Shown one piece after another: positions 458 through 11,242 of a stretch of DNA of 11,242 nucleotides; position 1 is the stretch's first letter, and each line of letters begins with the position of its first letter. The position numbers and the translations under genes were made by a program. The DNA lies in IMG/VR virus record IMGVR_UViG_2657245509_000010. The stretch is one strand, 5' to 3'. The stretch comes from a virus. Its lineage: Duplodnaviria; Heunggongvirae; Uroviricota; Caudoviricetes. The notes beneath the pieces are model-generated. The model was given only the letters and a program-made list of their open reading frames with translations. It was not told where the DNA came from and did not search any database.

Positions 458-807
458 AATTAATGGTCAGATTAATCGCTAACCCGCTGATATTTTCGGA
501 AACCTCAATTTGAGGAAGTCGGAAGCGTCACCCTTCATATTCTGAATGGTCATAATGACCACGCAGACCATCAAGGCAACCACAACGAACATCGTTACGG
601 TTGGAGCTTTTACCCCACTGGGGGAAAGGTATTACGATAATCATAACACCTACCGAACAGGTAAAACCCACCAGCCTGATTAACAGTTAACCGGAAAAAA
701 AATCCGGTAGCCCCGTTATGGGGATCCCCATATCGACATTAACGCCCCTCATGAATTGGTGCGCTTCCCCCTGGAAAGATTACCCGCCTGTATATTTCTT
801 GTGTCTA

Positions 808-868
808 TTTGTTCCACGTTGTTTCATACAGTGCACCGAACGGTGTAGTTAATGGTGTAGTCAATTTG
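808..868. repeat. Copy 1 of a ~65-bp imperfect direct repeat ending in tandem GGTGTAGTTAAT/GGTGTAGTCAAT motifs (842-865); candidate integrase arm-type binding sites
   Basis: 'ttgttccacgttgtttca...cggtgtagttaatggtgtagtcaat' recurs at 1032-1100; lies upstream of the integrase gene. Confidence 0.55.
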
Positions 869-1031
869 CTGTTTTTAGCACTTTTTGCAGTGTGGGTTGT
901 TTAATTAAATCAATGGGTTGCCTTGCTGTGGTGATAAAAGGACATATTTTATCAATTAGTGTTTTTTGCCGTTTCATAATGTTTCAGATTGTTCATTATA
1001 TTTTTGATTATAAACAGATTTGTGATTTTCC

Positions 1032-1100
1032 TTGTTCCAGCTTGTTTCACGTTGTAGCCCTTTGTGCAACGATCGGTGTAGTTAATGGTGTAGTTAATTG
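1032..1100. repeat. Copy 2 of the ~65-bp direct repeat with tandem GGTGTAGTTAAT x2 (1075-1098), directly abutting the integrase start
   Basis: Direct sequence comparison with 808-868. Confidence 0.55.
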
Positions 1101-1120
1101 TGATGACCGGAATCAAAATT

Positions 1121-2350
1121 ATGAGCAGAGCACTTAACAAACTGAGCGATACACAGCTGAGGAAAATCAACGGCACACCCGCCCAAAAAACAGCCTTTCT
1201 TAATGACGGTGGAAACCTGAGCGTCAGGCATTCAACCAGTGGCCTTTTAACCTGGTATTTCACTTACAGGGCCGGAACGGGAAGGGGGGCACCACCGGAA
1301 CGCATTAAGCTGGGAAATTATCCTGATCTGAGCCTGAAATCAGCCAGGGAAAAAGCCGCCCAGTGTCGCGCATGGCTGGCAGAGGGGAAAAATCCACGTC
1401 ATGAGCTTAATTACACCGTACAGGAAGCGTTAAAGCCGGTAACGGTTGGCGATGCGCTCACCTACTGGCTTGAGTCGTACGCAAAGGAAAACCGCGTGGA
1501 TTATGCCGCCCTGAAAAAGCGCCTTAATAATCACGTAATACAGCACATTGGTGCTATGCCGCTGGATAAATGCGAGCTACGGCACTGGCTGGCCTGTTTT
1601 GACCAGGTGGCAAAGCGAACGCCTGTTACTGCCGGATTCTTGCTACAGACGTGCAAACAGGCGCTTAAGTTCTGCCGGAGGCGGCGCTATGCAATCAGCA
1701 ACGTTCTTGATGATATGAGTGTGGCGGACGTTGGGAAAAAACCGGATATAAGCGAGCGTGTCTTAAGCACCAAAGAACTGGGCGAATTATTGCAGGCACT
1801 GGACAAAAAAATATTCTCCCCCTACTACATCGCGTTAATCCGCCTCCTGATTGTGTTCGGATGCCGGACGGTAGAACTGAGGTTATCGGAGATCAGCGAG
1901 TGGGATTTTACCGAAATGCTCTGGACCGTTCCGAAGGAGCACAGCAAAACGAAGGTAGCCATATTCCGGCCTATACCGGAAGCAATACTGCCGTTCATCA
2001 CGCAGCTGGTGGAGCAGAACAGGCACACGGGCTTATTGCTGGGGGAAGTGAAACAGGAGGCCAGCGTATCGCAGTATGGAAGATTAGCGCACAGGAGGCT
2101 TAATCACCCTCACTGGTCACTGCATGACATCCGGCGCACCTTTACAACCATGCTGAACGATTTAGGCGTTGATCCGCATGTCGTGGAGCAGCTTACAGGC
2201 CACCAGATGCCAGGAATGCAGCGAGTTTATAATCATTCCCGTTATCTGGATGCGAAACGCAATGCGCTGGATATGTGGACGGAGCGGTTAGGGATACTGG
2301 CGGGAACACATGAAAACGTAACCACGCTACCAGTAGCCAGAAGAAAATAA
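1121..2350 (+). CDS. int: Tyrosine site-specific integrase with arm-binding N-terminal domain (P4/PICI-type)
   Basis: N-terminus 'LSDTQLRKINGTPAQKTAFLNDGGNLSV...GNYPDLSLKSAREKAAQCRAWLAEGKNP' fits the arm-DNA-binding domain pattern; C-terminus has 'HDIRRTF' and 'RVYNHSRYL' as in catalytic tyrosine recombinase domains. Start is ambiguous (ATG at 1100, 1103 or 1121); the end is firm. Confidence 0.9.
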   Translation: MSRALNKLSDTQLRKINGTPAQKTAFLNDGGNLSVRHSTSGLLTWYFTYRAGTGRGAPPERIKLGNYPDLSLKSAREKAAQCRAWLAEGKNPRHELNYTVQEALKPVTVGDALTYWLESYAKENRVDYAALKKRLNNHVIQHIGAMPLDKCELRHWLACFDQVAKRTPVTAGFLLQTCKQALKFCRRRRYAISNVLDDMSVADVGKKPDISERVLSTKELGELLQALDKKIFSPYYIALIRLLIVFGCRTVELRLSEISEWDFTEMLWTVPKEHSKTKVAIFRPIPEAILPFITQLVEQNRHTGLLLGEVKQEASVSQYGRLAHRRLNHPHWSLHDIRRTFTTMLNDLGVDPHVVEQLTGHQMPGMQRVYNHSRYLDAKRNALDMWTERLGILAGTHENVTTLPVARRK

Positions 2351-2367
2351 TTTTTTTCGTGTTTTTT

Positions 2368-2383
2368 CAGTATGCGCATACTG
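2368..2383. repeat. Perfect 16-bp palindrome CAGTATGCGCATACTG in the int-alpA intergenic region
   Basis: Read directly. Confidence 0.6.
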
Positions 2384-2404
2384 GATATGCGAACAGATAC
2401 AACG

Positions 2405-2714: not shown

Positions 2715-2903
2715 GTGTTAAGCACTGATCGGTTTATACGTGAAAAAGAATGCGAAAAACTAACCGGCCTTAGCCGTACGTGTCGCTACCGCCTGGAAAA
2801 GGCCGGACAATTCCCATCACGTCGTAAACTTGGCGGTCGTTCCGTTGGCTGGTCTTTATCCGAGGTTCTGGCCTGGAAGGATAGCTGCAAGGCAGTTCAT
2901 TAA
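2715..2903 (+). CDS. alpA: AlpA-family transcriptional regulator / excisionase-like protein (GTG start)
   Basis: 'LTGLSRTCRYRLEKAGQFPSRRKLGGRSVGWSLSEVLAWK' matches the AlpA/phage-excisionase HTH pattern; strong SD 'agggggc' 5 nt upstream of the GTG; located just after int as in Gram-negative PICIs. Confidence 0.85.
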   Translation: MLSTDRFIREKECEKLTGLSRTCRYRLEKAGQFPSRRKLGGRSVGWSLSEVLAWKDSCKAVH

Positions 2904-4795: not shown

Positions 4796-5095
4796 ATGAA
4801 ACTTAAATATTCTGGCTTAACTGCCAGTGGCAACACTCACCCTAAATTTACGCGCGGTGATATTTACCGCGACCAGTACGGCGGCACGGTAATGATTAAG
4901 GGCGTGGAAGAACGGCGCGTAACCTACCGCCGTGAAGGTTACGAATATGATTGCGTGATGCCTGTTTATCAGTTCCGGCGTGATTTTTCTCTGGTACAGA
5001 CCGCGCCGCATAACGTGCCCACCAGCAACGCCAGGGCACGGGCAAACATCCAGAAGCTGAAAACCATGGTTAACGGATTCAGGGGCAAGAAATGA
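4796..5095 (+). CDS. Hypothetical protein (99 aa)
   Basis: SD 'ggaga' about 10 nt upstream; stop overlaps the start of the replication ATPase gene. Confidence 0.6.
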   Translation: MKLKYSGLTASGNTHPKFTRGDIYRDQYGGTVMIKGVEERRVTYRREGYEYDCVMPVYQFRRDFSLVQTAPHNVPTSNARARANIQKLKTMVNGFRGKK

Positions 5096-6492
5096 AAAGC
5101 GCACCGAACTTAAAAAAACAGCCTTACGACAAGATGACCGAAGTCATTATTTTTGCGGGTAGTGATGCCTGGGCACATGCGAAACAGTGGCAGGAACAGG
5201 ACGGGCGACTGGCTGGCGATAATGTGCCTCCCGTTGTGCTGGCTGATGATCAACTGGATGAACTGGCAGAACTGAGAATCATCGACGAGGGGCGCTATTG
5301 TGTCCGGCTGTACAAGGCAGGCCACATCAGGCCATCAAATATTAATGCCATTGCGCACAAGCTGGCGGCGGCGGGTGTAACTGATGCGAATTATTACCCC
5401 GAAGGGATGCACAGCCATATGCGGGAGAACTGGCGCGAATACCTGGAACGGGTGCGCGGGAAAGAGCCGGCGGAAGAAAAAAACCACCAGCGAAAAACCA
5501 CGCTACCGATGAGCGTTGGATCTACCGGATACGACACGCAACTGGATTACGTGGTTAAGGGGATTATTCCGGCGGTATCGCTATGCAGCATATACGGGGC
5601 TAGCGGGTCCTATAAATCATTCCTTGCCGGATCGTGGGCGTGCCATGTTGCCACTGGTCGCCAGTGGGGAGGCCGCAGGGTTGCACATGGTGCGGTTCTC
5701 TATGTGGTTGGTGAAGGCGGTATAGGTGTTCCGCGTCGTGTAAAAGCCTGGGAGGTTGTGCACGATGAGCAGGTGAAAAATCTGTATCTGGTAAACCGCC
5801 CCATCTTTCCGGCTGCCCCGCTTGATGTTGATGAAATGGTTATCGCTGCCCGTCAGGTGGAGCGGGAAACGGGTAAACCTGTACGCATGATTATTCTGGA
5901 TACGCTGGCGCGTTGCTTTGGTGGGAATGATGAAAATGATTCCCGTGATATGGGGGCGTTTATCCGTGGTTGTGACGAACTGAAACGACGCACAGGGGCC
6001 ACGGTGCTGGTGGTTCACCATTCCGGCAAGGATGAGACGAAAGGCGCGCGCGGTTCCAGTGCATTTCGTGCTTCGCTGGATGCTGAATACCGGATACGCA
6101 GGGAGGACGCAGGAAGCGAAGCGCTGGTTATCTCATGCACCAAAATGAAGGACGCGGAGGAACTCAAAGAAGCCGCATATGACTTACGCGTGGTGGAGCT
6201 TTTTACCGACGCTGACGGTGAATTAATCACGTCGCTGGTGGTGGTGGATGATCCGCGCCCTCCTGTTGAACTGGAGCGCATCGAGGAGGCAGGGAACAAG
6301 ACGGAAAACCATACCGCGCTATGGGGGTGCATCCGTTCACGCACACAGAACGGCGACAAGTGCACGATCCCGCTGTTACGTGATGACATGAAAAAGCTGG
6401 GGTATGAAATGAAAAACTTCCGGCGCTGGCTGTACAAGCTGGAAAAAGATGGGGTTATTCGTATCGATGGGGATGATGTAGCGCCGCTATAA
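5092..6492 (+). CDS. RepA/DnaB-like RecA-fold replication ATPase (satellite replicase-helicase) with a probable C-terminal winged-helix domain
   Basis: P-loop-like 'GASGSYKS', Walker-B-like 'MIILDTLARCFGG', and 'VLVVHHSGKDETKGARGSSAFRASLDAEYRIRRE' typical of RepA-like helicases; C-terminus 'WLYKLEKDGVIRI' looks wHTH-like; an iteron array lies immediately downstream. Confidence 0.8.
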   Translation: MKSAPNLKKQPYDKMTEVIIFAGSDAWAHAKQWQEQDGRLAGDNVPPVVLADDQLDELAELRIIDEGRYCVRLYKAGHIRPSNINAIAHKLAAAGVTDANYYPEGMHSHMRENWREYLERVRGKEPAEEKNHQRKTTLPMSVGSTGYDTQLDYVVKGIIPAVSLCSIYGASGSYKSFLAGSWACHVATGRQWGGRRVAHGAVLYVVGEGGIGVPRRVKAWEVVHDEQVKNLYLVNRPIFPAAPLDVDEMVIAARQVERETGKPVRMIILDTLARCFGGNDENDSRDMGAFIRGCDELKRRTGATVLVVHHSGKDETKGARGSSAFRASLDAEYRIRREDAGSEALVISCTKMKDAEELKEAAYDLRVVELFTDADGELITSLVVVDDPRPPVELERIEEAGNKTENHTALWGCIRSRTQNGDKCTIPLLRDDMKKLGYEMKNFRRWLYKLEKDGVIRIDGDDVAPL

Positions 6493-6684
6493 AAGTGAGG
6501 AGCAAAAGCGAGGGGGATAGAAAGAGGGCCAAAATTAGCCCGCTCTCCCTCACTTTTCGACCTGTATACATCCTCAAAAGTGAGGGGTAAAAAAATACTT
6601 ATGAAACACACACATAGAAAAACCGAAAATCCCAACTGCGACGAAGTGAGACGCTTGAAAAAGTGAGGCGAAAAAGTGAGAGGT
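6491..6684. repeat. Iteron array (at least six copies of AAGTGAG(G/A) in both orientations); putative replication origin
   Basis: Copies at about 6493, 6549 (inverted), 6579, 6643, 6660 and 6674, immediately 3' of the replication ATPase gene. Confidence 0.65.
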
Positions 6685-10300: not shown

Positions 10301-10368
10301 ACGGGTCCTTCCTGGAATTATGGCCCGTTACGGGGCGGCGACCTCGCGGATTTTCGCTATTTATGAGC
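10301..10368 (+). other. cos site (cosQ-cosN), lambda-like; predicted 12-nt cohesive end GGGCGGCGACCT at 10333-10344
   Basis: 'acgggtccttcctggaattatggcccgttacg|gggcggcgacct|cgcggattttcgctatttatga' against lambda 'ACGGGTCCTTTCCGGTGATCCGACAGGTTACG|GGGCGGCGACCT|CGCGGGTTTTCGCTATTTATGA' (from memory); located about 135 bp upstream of the Nu1-like gene. Confidence 0.85.
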
Positions 10369-10438
10369 CTTTTCAGGGTGGTGGTGGTGGTTTTGTTGTT
10401 TGATCTATCTTTATGAATGAAAAGGGAAAGATGCAAGC

Positions 10439-10477: not shown

Positions 10478-11020
10478 ATGAAATCTCATCTGATGAACAA
10501 AAAAAACATGGCGAAAAGCTGCCGTGTAAGTGCGACAGCGTTCGACAAGTGGGGAGTAACTCCCGTTGAGCGTAAAGGCCGTGAGGCGTTTTATGATGTT
10601 GCCAGCGTGATAGAAAATAGGGTTAACAATGCAATTAGCCAGCTTATAAACGACAAAGGCGAGATTGACGATGATGAACTTTTACGAGTCAGGATCAGAT
10701 TACTGACAGCACAGGCAGAGGCGCAGGAACTTAAAAACGATCGCGATCGCGGTGACGTGATTGATACTGAGTTTTGCCTGTACGCGCTTTCAAAGCTGGC
10801 GAGTCAGATTTCATCAATCATGGACAGCCTCCCGCTTACTATGCAAAGGAGCTTCCCACAGATTACCCCCGCCATGCTGGACAGGCTTAAAAGGGAAGTG
10901 GTTAAAGCCTGTAATGCCAGTGCCAGAGTTGCCGACAACCTCCCACAGATACTGGCTGATTACTTGAAAGAAACAACCGGAAACGTACCGGAAAAGTTGC
11001 TACAGAAGAAAGGCGAGTAA
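10478..11020 (+). CDS. Terminase small subunit, lambda Nu1-like
   Basis: 'LTAQAEAQELKNDRDRGDVIDTEFCLYALSKLASQISSIMDSLPLTMQRSFP' aligns with Nu1 'LTRAQADAQELKNARDSAEVVETAFCTFVLSRIAGEIASILDGLPLSVQRRFP'; N-terminus 'NKKNMAKSCRVSATAFDKW' against 'NKKQLADIFGASIRTIQNW'. 180 aa against 181 aa. Start may be the ATG at 10493. Confidence 0.9.
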   Translation: MKSHLMNKKNMAKSCRVSATAFDKWGVTPVERKGREAFYDVASVIENRVNNAISQLINDKGEIDDDELLRVRIRLLTAQAEAQELKNDRDRGDVIDTEFCLYALSKLASQISSIMDSLPLTMQRSFPQITPAMLDRLKREVVKACNASARVADNLPQILADYLKETTGNVPEKLLQKKGE

Positions 11021-11039: not shown

Positions 11040-11242
11040 CAAAAATGAGAAAGGATCTGATAATGGCATTTTCTGGCTAAAATGCCTCGTGTCAGATCCT
11101 TTCTTTTTTTAATATTTTCATTGTTAAACAGTCTGTTACAGAGAAGAAGATCGGATCTGACTTTTGCCGGAAAATTCTCATAAACAGATAAAAACCGCGA
11201 GGTCGCCGCCCCGTAACGGGCCATAATTCCAGGAAGGACCCG
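11040..11242 (-). other. Second cos site in inverted orientation (cosN reverse complement at 11200-11211) with a full-length lambda-like cosB arm; cosQ part is the terminal repeat
   Basis: Reverse complement reads 'cgggtccttcctggaattatggcccgttacg|gggcggcgacct|cgcggtttttatctgtttatgagaattttccgg...tcttcttc...', tracking the lambda left end 'CGCGGGTTTTCGCTATTTATGAAAATTTTCCGG...TTCTTCTTCG' further than the 10301 cos does. Confidence 0.8.
11048..11110. terminator. Nested inverted repeat AGAAAGGATCTGA...TCAGATCCTTTCT followed by T7; likely terS terminator and, on the other strand, lambda-like cosB R2/R1-type sites
   Basis: 13-bp arms at 11048-11060 and 11093-11105 with an inner GGCATTTT/AAAATGCC hairpin; the reverse complement aligns with the lambda cosB region 'GAAAAGAAAGGAAACGACAGG...CCTCTGTCGTTTCCTTTCT'. 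Confidence 0.6.

Follow-up and report, generated by a model that had tools for sequence, protein, structure and literature searches.

Results and Discussion

The DNA studied here (IMG/VR virus record IMGVR_UViG_2657245509_000010, Caudoviricetes) is a stretch of 11,242 nt, which we refer to in its entirety as the window. It carries an element of ~11 kb whose genes all point rightward: int, encoding a tyrosine integrase (Int); alpA; Icd-like genes; a DUF4222 gene; and genes for a RepA-type helicase, a single-stranded DNA-binding protein, PerC and, rightmost, a lambda gpE-type major capsid protein, a decoration protein, and a homologue of the Nu1-type small terminase. These assignments derive from Pfam and from the annotation of identical copies, and the gene order is that of EcCICFT073, a Gram-negative phage-inducible chromosomal island (PICI). 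Directly upstream of int, two duplicated blocks flank an AT-rich stretch. We are confident, short of certainty, that positions 790–1100 constitute the complete attP of an EcCICFT073-family PICI that integrates between phoQ and roxA (ycfD), a judgment that includes the assignment of its core, arm, integration host factor (IHF), and AlpA sites.

Among complete Escherichia coli genomes searched by megablast, strain NCCP 13894 is 100% identical to the first 2.4 kb of the window, and it carries two identical head-to-tail copies of the element between roxA and phoQ. EcCIRM12579, from the O55:H7 strain RM12579, is 99.89% identical to the element over 11,220 bp, and EcCICFT073 is 97% identical to it. 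The window Int has the same protein accession as EcCIRM12579 Int and shares 397 of 410 residues with EcCICFT073 Int. Its open reading frame (ORF) contains PF13356 (E 5e-18), an N-terminal arm-DNA-binding domain, together with PF22022 and PF00589, and the N-domain is similar to that of a CP4-like integrase (PDB 3JTZ/3RMP). The start codon called in RefSeq copies is the ATG at 1121, 22 bp past the second of two pairs of 12-mers described below. An Int-based search of genome contigs returned one near-identical Shigella locus, one irrelevant match, and no divergent relatives; divergent relatives were gathered instead by a pattern scan of IMG/VR.

Location of the Crossover Core

The core was located by aligning the left, inter-copy, and right junctions of NCCP 13894, the inter-copy junction being that of the window. 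The left junction (attL) leaves the roxA upstream region and equals the window from base 940, whereas the right junction (attR) equals the window through base 949 and then enters the phoQ stop codon. The comparison was extended to CFT073, RM12579, Z1323PEC0011, and ~889 other genomes. CFT073 has the same two junctions, as does a 1.5-kb deletion remnant in E. coli Z1323PEC0011 (L002, 14001–15545). The remnant retains both att junctions and both repeat blocks; its attL and int, cut at window position ~2244, are fused to the P arm from window position ~704 and attR. In the ~889 genomes, the region is split at 946–949; phoQ adjoins its left half, and int its right half. Window positions 700–949 adjoin phoQ in integrated copies (attR), positions 940/946–1120 adjoin int (attL), and the two halves overlap only at 940–949. 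No integrated copy in this set had junctions outside 932–954.

To rebuild the empty attB, a single copy of the core was placed between the two host flanks. The resulting sequence is found uninterrupted at 100% identity in O157:H7 strain F8798 and others, and 4822 of 5426 E. coli genomes cover ≥80% of it. The 10-mer GGACATATTT is the only sequence common to attP, the empty attB, attL, and attR. The junction alignments therefore show, at sequence level, that strand exchange occurs within GGACATATTT. The same 10-mer is listed as the att core of EcCICFT073 and EcCIRM12579 at ycfD–phoQ (Fillol-Salom et al. 2018, Table S1, PMC6092414); our core had been derived from the junctions before the published 10-mer was met. 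The attachment site specific to this PICI, ycfD–phoQ with core GGACATATTT, is thereby present. A plasmid carrying the EcCICFT073 int-attPI cassette integrates, and int or attPI mutants do not (PMC6092414).

The initial annotation had proposed an intact attP in this region and had predicted that chimeric attL and attR junctions, each containing half of it, would be found in bacterial genomes. The chimeras exist as predicted and divide the region between the two repeat clusters. Because attL and attR meet at 940–949 and Int contains PF13356, an intact attP is present, and the empty attB further bears this out. The features expected of the attP of a heterobivalent integrase were found together: an adjacent tyrosine recombinase with an N-terminal arm-binding domain, a short core common to attP and attB with chimeric attL and attR, and repeats of the arm type, unlike the core sites, on both sides of the core (842–865 and 1075–1098).

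Inverted core-type sites around an overlap of 6–8 bp, also expected for such an integrase, are present by sequence. Two core-type sites around an overlap region represent the usual layout. Here, TGATAAAA and TTTTATCA form a perfect 8-bp inverted repeat around 7 bp, and we infer that the spacer GGACATA is the overlap region and that TGATAAAA and TTTTATCA are candidate core-type integrase sites C and C'. In relatives with other targets, T(T/G)ATAWAT and (A/T)TTTATCA are kept and the intervening 7 bp differ. EC444 provides a second intact attP, in a capsid-forming PICI (15.3 kb) with a 91%-identical Int that is deposited as a tandem dimer inside tqsA. Its arms are ~95% identical to those of the window, and a stretch of ~30 bp, made up of the core and the bases on its left, is replaced. 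The attL, attP, and attR of EC444 share the 9-bp ATAACAGCA at the position equivalent to the window core, which is the published core for tqsA (Table S1, PMC6092414). Relatives from IMG/VR target the region upstream of clpS, where they share GATAGTTAT (published core, ATGATAGTTAT), as well as at least four other sites.

Topology of the Element

The window closes on itself: bases 1–32 equal 11211–11242, giving a 32-bp terminal overlap and a period of 11,210 bp. The initial annotation had read the intact attP as evidence of an excised, circular form. Self-closure fits a circle, but that conclusion does not strictly follow from an intact attP, because a chromosomal tandem dimer holds an intact attP too. 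The window equals positions 14001–25242 of the NCCP 13894 locus (L001) exactly, which is the junction unit of such a dimer. The window may instead be one unit of a chromosomal head-to-tail dimer (attL–PICI–attP–PICI–attR), or an assembly of a replicating concatemer, with attP as the inter-copy junction, and we put this alternative only slightly below an even chance. The two NCCP 13894 copies are identical, the EC444 PICI at tqsA (L003–L005) has also been deposited as a perfect tandem dimer, and PICIs are described in the literature as replicating as concatemers. On the other hand, ends that overlap by 32 bp, at a period matching the length of the element, are typical of a circularised contig, and EcCICFT073 forms circles spontaneously, as detected by PCR, and covalently closed circles after induction (PMC6092414). 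Moreover, assembled tandem dimers could be long-read artefacts of concatemers; those of NCCP 13894 and EC444 could represent either real tandem integration or long-read concatemer assembly. An intact attP and a terminal overlap fit an excised circle, a concatemer-derived contig, and a tandem dimer equally well. Given that chromosomal tandem dimers have been deposited, an intact attP in an assembly is not in itself proof of an episome.

Candidate Int and AlpA Sites in the Arms

Whatever the topology, the preferred reading of 790–1100 as a complete attP extends to the two blocks. They form a direct repeat of 75 nt (792–866 versus 1025–1099) with 76% identity and a start-to-start distance of 233 bp. 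As the core lies between them, they belong to different arms, the left one to P and the right one to P'. With ungapped scoring (+1/−2), the best repeat in 700–1120 scores 27, as compared to 9.1 ± 1.1 (maximum 15) in 200 dinucleotide-preserving shuffles of the same segment. The GC content between the blocks is 27–35%, versus ~50% in the flanks. These values essentially reproduce the initial annotation, which had described ~65-bp blocks with tandem motifs, ~230 bp apart within 800–1105, around an AT-rich stretch upstream of int. Each block is composite, with TTGT boxes at its 5' end and a tandem pair of 12-mers at its 3' end, and in both arms the last TTGT box starts 13 bp ahead of the first 12-mer. 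Only one of these two repeat families is likely to be the integrase arm site.

The 12-mers, GGTGTAGT(T/C)AAT, abut each other at the end of each block. Allowing up to two mismatches, GGTGTAGTTAAT has five matches in the 11.2-kb window versus 0.72 expected, a number reached in 0 of 200 shuffles. The four good matches start at 842, 854, 1075, and 1087, all on the plus strand, as two adjacent pairs. When 12 P arms representing at least 7 integration sites are aligned, CGGTGTAGTyAnTGGTGTAGTyAwT emerges as the longest nearly invariant stretch, and the pair lies at a constant ~75 bp from the variable overlap; P' arms behave alike. The Int proteins of the window and EC444 differ at 36 positions, 21 of them within the first 100 residues; in the predicted sheet, VRHSTSGLL is replaced by VKYLTSGKL. 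The 12-mers of EC444 also change, all four together, from (T/C)AAT to CA(C/T)T. VRHSTSGLL pairs with (T/C)AAT, and VKYLTSGKL with CA(C/T)T, in all 10 loci that contain both. The EC444-type 12-mer contains AGTCACT, which also occurs in the annotated Int-binding regions of lambda attP. These observations suggest that the 12-mers are probably the integrase arm-type sites.

The TTGT boxes follow one another at an exact 10-bp spacing. Three TTGT in 10-bp phase are matched six times in the window (one match is at 799–822), versus 0.02 expected, and these phased triples are confined to three places: both arms and 2399–2442, between the int stop codon and alpA. All three clusters are conserved in CFT073, D i14, RM12579, and EC444. 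Recombination directionality factors (RDFs) typically have direct repeats as their sites, spaced by one helical turn in arrays of three or more, and some RDFs, such as 186 Apl and P2 Cox, bind regulatory regions too. In EcCICFT073, AlpA activates its own promoter, PalpA, and AlpA overexpression leads to int-dependent excision. The alpA product is therefore likely both an RDF and an activator, and the array at 2399–2442 is likely an AlpA operator for the autoactivated alpA promoter. The two families vary separately. EC444 and the window have 100% identical AlpA proteins and do not differ in their TTGT boxes. In an element at the clpS site (L075), AlpA is 61% identical and the boxes become TTGTTCG in both arms; Int is 77% identical overall, its sheet segment is identical, and the 12-mers are unchanged. 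This double dissociation favours an assignment of the 12-mers to Int and of the TTGT arrays to AlpA.

Two further features complete the region. The sequence AATCAATGGGTTG follows an A/T tract and separates the P-arm pair from the core. Nowhere else does the window match the IHF consensus WATCAANNNNTTR exactly, and an equivalent AATCAAT..GTTA is kept in EC444, L066, and L069. An int promoter must lie somewhere in the P' arm, within 955–1120, because the host flank upstream of int in the prophage is the divergent roxA. Two ORFs that overlie attP, 892–1137 (+) and 952–1263 (−), were rejected as spurious; they are absent from the RefSeq annotation and cross the recombination core. In EC444, RefSeq annotates a 60-aa hypothetical protein, WP_001332680.1 (L003 14023–14205, minus strand), over the P' arm and the start of int, equivalent to window positions ~950–1135. 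This is probably another spurious call over attP.

Several observations weigh against these assignments. AlpA had no effect on a Pint-lacZ fusion in EcCICFT073. This result, whose weight depends on the extent of the cloned fragment, is unexpected if AlpA occupies the four boxes that separate the probable int promoter from the start codon. A promoter and terminator scan of 600–1250 gave no convincing int promoter; its one promoter-like site, at 973–1002, was not above chance. The co-variation of Int with the 12-mers represents essentially one evolutionary event, with two N-domain types and two motif types, and that of AlpA with the TTGT boxes comes from one divergent lineage. In that lineage, the strict three-box pattern is present in the P arm and absent from the P' arm and the int–alpA region, where just two boxes match, loosely. 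The IHF assignment is a single consensus match, and 97 of 200 shuffles give at least one in the window. Finally, each assignment of a motif to a protein is inferred from sequence.

The reverse assignment, in which the 12-mers are AlpA (excisionase) sites and the phased TTGT boxes are Int arm-type sites, must be considered in this light. Both families are direct repeats on both arms, the lambda arm sites P'1–P'3 are also roughly helically phased direct repeats, and the null effect of AlpA on Pint is simpler if AlpA does not bind the box array. Against this stand the third TTGT array, which has no 12-mers and lies upstream of alpA, a gene with an AlpA-activated promoter; the EC444 comparison, in which the 12-mers change along with the type of Int N-domain and AlpA does not change at all; and the clpS-site element, in which the boxes change where AlpA diverges and the Int beta-sheet segment does not. 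The 12-mers also resemble lambda arm sites and adjoin Tn916-type integrase genes elsewhere, and the box arrays have the number and helical spacing typical of RDF sites. We consider the reverse assignment improbable and retain the 12-mers as probable Int sites.

The blocks could also be no more than operators for int transcription, or iterons of a replication origin, with no role in recombination. The P' block does lie between the probable promoter region and the int ATG, and an attL that overlaps an int promoter is known from the literature to give autoregulation. The matching block across the core, however, ends up ~11 kb from int after integration and cannot regulate it, and a role in a recombination complex is indicated by the spacing between blocks and core, which stays constant across at least 7 targets. 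As to iterons, the blocks sit on either side of the recombination core, at a distance of 4 kb from the repA-type gene, whereas a separate, unrelated set, AAAGTGAGG, occupies 6491–6683 just after the repA-type helicase gene, where PICI origins occur. This explanation is thus very unlikely, although regulation and recombination are not mutually exclusive roles. A neutral remnant or chance similarity is scarcely credible: the 75-nt copies are only 76% identical overall, but their repeat score far exceeds that of the shuffles, the 12-mers are nearly invariant and changed together in the EC444 lineage, and the box-to-12-mer register is equal in the two arms.

Table 1. Features of the attP region and of the adjoining int and alpA genes (window coordinates)
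Feature	Position	Strand	Evidence or proposed role
P-arm block (TTGT-box array and two 12-mers)	792–866	+	Repeat search and shuffle test; goes with attR beside phoQ
P-arm TTGT boxes TTGTGTCT, TTGTTCCA, TTGTTTCA, and degenerate CAGTGCAC (starts 799, 809, 819, and 829)	799–836	+	Candidate AlpA (RDF/regulator) sites
P-arm 12-mers GGTGTAGTTAAT and GGTGTAGTCAAT	842–865	+	Candidate P1 and P2; motif search, conservation, Int co-variation
IHF consensus match AATCAATGGGTTG	908–920	+	Candidate IHF bend site
Inverted repeat TGATAAAA (932–939)/TTTTATCA (947–954) around GGACATA (940–946)	932–954		Read from sequence
Identity block GGACATATTT of attP, attB, attL, and attR	940–949		Junction alignment, empty attB, published 10-mer
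Three weaker GTTTCA/GTTCA repeats, 10-bp spacing, core-proximal P' arm	969–998	+	Read from sequence
P'-arm block	1025–1099	+	Repeat search; goes with attL beside int
P'-arm TTGT boxes TTGTTCCA, TTGTTTCA, TTGTAGCC, and TTGTGCAA (starts 1032, 1042, 1052, and 1062)	1032–1069	+	Candidate AlpA sites; same 13-bp register to the 12-mers as in the P arm
P'-arm 12-mers, GGTGTAGTTAAT twice	1075–1098	+	Candidate P'1 and P'2; motif search, relatives
int, tyrosine integrase	1121–2350	+	Arm-DNA-bind_3, Phage_int_M, and Phage_integrase domains
Third array, five TTGT boxes, 10-bp spacing, inverted, without 12-mers	2399–2442	−	Candidate AlpA operator
alpA, Phage_AlpA family	2715–2903	+	Pfam and literature

Proposed Mechanism

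Our analysis allows a detailed mechanism to be proposed. The Arm-DNA-bind_3 N-domain of Int would bind the four 12-mers, which would serve as arm-type sites in a single orientation, with one pair ~80–100 bp to the left of the core and the other ~130–155 bp to its right. A heterobivalent Int could then bridge the arms and the core in an intasome, and bending by IHF at 908–920 may let the P arm fold back. AlpA would bind the phased TTGT boxes that immediately precede each pair of 12-mers as well as those upstream of alpA, acting as directionality factor and activator, a dual role that may be likened to that of the dual-purpose RDFs 186 Apl and P2 Cox. Integration sends one block to each end of the island. 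With the P' block situated between the int promoter region and the int start codon, Int may autoregulate its own gene, as in KplE1; by this analogy, KplE1-type autoregulation is plausible.

Other Features of the Element

Two lambda-type cos sites are present. An inverted repeat of 76 nt with 91% complementarity (10302–10377 and 11167–11242, the latter continuing into 1–32) encloses the Nu1-like gene (10478–11020), and the cosN sequence GGGCGGCGACCT occurs in opposite orientations at ~10334–10345 (+) and 11200–11211 (−). Base 1 of the window is the last base of the second cosN. Published work shows both cos sites of EcCICFT073 (cos1 and cos2) to be functional, and EcCICFT073 is the only element of the family for which experiments have demonstrated induction, packaging, and transfer that depend on a helper phage. 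Every defining feature that sequence can reveal is present, which identifies the element as an EcCICFT073-family PICI, essentially EcCIRM12579. At least five copies of AAAAGTGAGG-type iterons lie at 6491–6683, directly downstream of the helicase gene (5092–6492), and the PICI probably has its replication origin there.

Searches of the window for tRNA and tmRNA genes with ARAGORN were negative, and an Rfam scan of the whole window gave no match. A tRNA gene as integration target was rejected, the target being the 3' end of phoQ. An identity with SpLE2 was also rejected: SpLE2 lies at cobU–yeeB, and the roxA–phoQ element is listed separately. The near-perfect palindrome ACTACGAAATTTTCGTAGT occupies non-coding DNA at 437–455, between the ORF at 66–347 and the P arm, and the segment just after it, ~455–520, is conserved in the EC444 element. 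Typical O157:H7 genomes match window positions 940–2400 in two pieces, with an IS3-family transposase annotated beneath; the O157:H7 copy of the PICI is therefore interrupted by an insertion sequence (IS) in or near int.

Comparison with Known Systems

The attPI of EcCICFT073 and EcCIRM12579 shares its integration site and its core with the window attP, and the attL and attR halves in CFT073 carry the same blocks. There is no essential difference, except that attP is in one piece in the window and not divided between attL and attR. Descriptions of arm, core-type, IHF, or AlpA sites for these two attachment sites were not found in the available literature, and the word "arm" is absent from the PMC6092414 supplements. 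Full-text literature searches with the 12-mer and its variants returned unrelated papers only, the 12-mer itself being met in a PDF supplement, and searches with lambda and Tn916 arm-site strings were uninformative.

The window attP resembles lambda attP in its inverted core-type sites around a 7-bp overlap, in the distinct candidate arm sites on both arms, and in its AT-rich extent of ~250–300 bp; the candidate IHF site, a consensus match, would also have the lambda placement, between the P-arm sites and the core. The EC444 12-mer also shares AGTCACT with the lambda sequence CAGTCACTAT. The two differ in that lambda has two plus three arm sites, with those of P and P' in opposite orientation, whereas here each arm has two tandem sites and all have one orientation. 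Lambda Int has an N-domain of another Pfam family, its RDF is Xis rather than an AlpA-type protein, and int, located here on the opposite side, is read in the direction leading away from attP. P2 and 186 are similar in that their RDFs (Cox and Apl) have sites at att as well as in a region that controls transcription, and in that these sites are direct repeats in helical phase. P2 Int reportedly recognizes two direct arm repeats per arm, with one IHF site in the P arm. Cox and Apl are, however, unrelated to AlpA, and they repress, whereas AlpA activates its own promoter. In the KplE1 attL/intS region (Panis et al. 2010, PMC2951348), int is likewise transcribed away from att, with P'-arm sites in the int promoter or leader, and negative autoregulation is predicted. 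KplE1 differs in targeting a tRNA gene, whereas this PICI targets the 3' end of phoQ, and AlpA had no effect on EcCICFT073 Pint.

A resemblance extends to the Tn916-family integrases (PF02920). Among the 120 IMG/VR loci that carry the tandem pattern, 32 have GGTGTAGTAAnT GGTGTAGTAAnn within 300 bp of a Tn916-type integrase gene (L009, L012, L016, L043, L067, L087, L098, L102, L119, L124, and others), sometimes with a third copy. The DR2 arm site of Tn916 is GAGTAGTAAATTC. The Tn916-type cases differ in integrase family, in host (low-GC phages), and in position: the sites follow the 3' end of int, usually right after its stop codon. This pattern suggests that a distant integrase family may recognize its arm sites in a similar way.

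A Published Core Reassigned as an Arm Repeat

The map bears on att cores assigned to other islands. The "att site core" listed for EcCIDI14 is CGGTGTAGTTAATGGTGTAGTTAATT (Table S1, PMC6092414). In clone D i14 (L129), CGGTGTAGTTAATGGTGTAGTTAATT is the tandem arm repeat, with copies at 1549–1572 and 12165–12188. The island interrupts an IS110 gene, whose splits lie ~133 bp beyond the P' pair, on its left, and ~77 bp beyond the P pair, on its right; there they adjoin TTATAAAT-ATCGTGA and TTTTATAA. Both splits lie outside the two copies; the published core of EcCIDI14 is therefore an arm repeat. This correction shifts the true ends of the island outward by ~80 and 130 bp. The yejM–luxR islands (TTTGTAGTTATACG, twice) and NmCIFF6 also have tandem "cores", which may reflect the same misassignment. 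The direct repeats that flank such islands can thus be arm sites rather than the crossover core.

Implications

Earlier publications already give the core and the target site and show that the int-attP cassette is functional, and the feature is canonical and largely known. What is new is the sequence-level map of the likely Int, AlpA, and IHF sites, together with the distinction between arm and core. For basic biology, a textbook-type attP of a published satellite is of little consequence. The base-level map, which includes the core, the overlap, the candidate IHF site, four arm sites, and the AlpA arrays, delineates a likely minimal attP for PICI-based delivery vectors and offers clear targets for mutagenesis.

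A broader proposal is that GGTGTAGTnAnT tandem pairs are a general arm-site signature of integrases whose N-domain is a three-stranded sheet (PF13356 and PF02920), with the arms acting as portable AlpA and Int modules. We advance it tentatively and regard it as rather doubtful. Were it true, arm sites and true attP boundaries could be called from sequence, and several published PICI "att cores", that of EcCIDI14 and probably those of the yejM–luxR group, would need correction. The signature would then span enterobacterial PICIs of the P4/CP4 type and low-GC phages of the Tn916 type. The arms would stay fixed while ~30 bp around the core are swapped, retargeting the island to at least 7 chromosomal sites.

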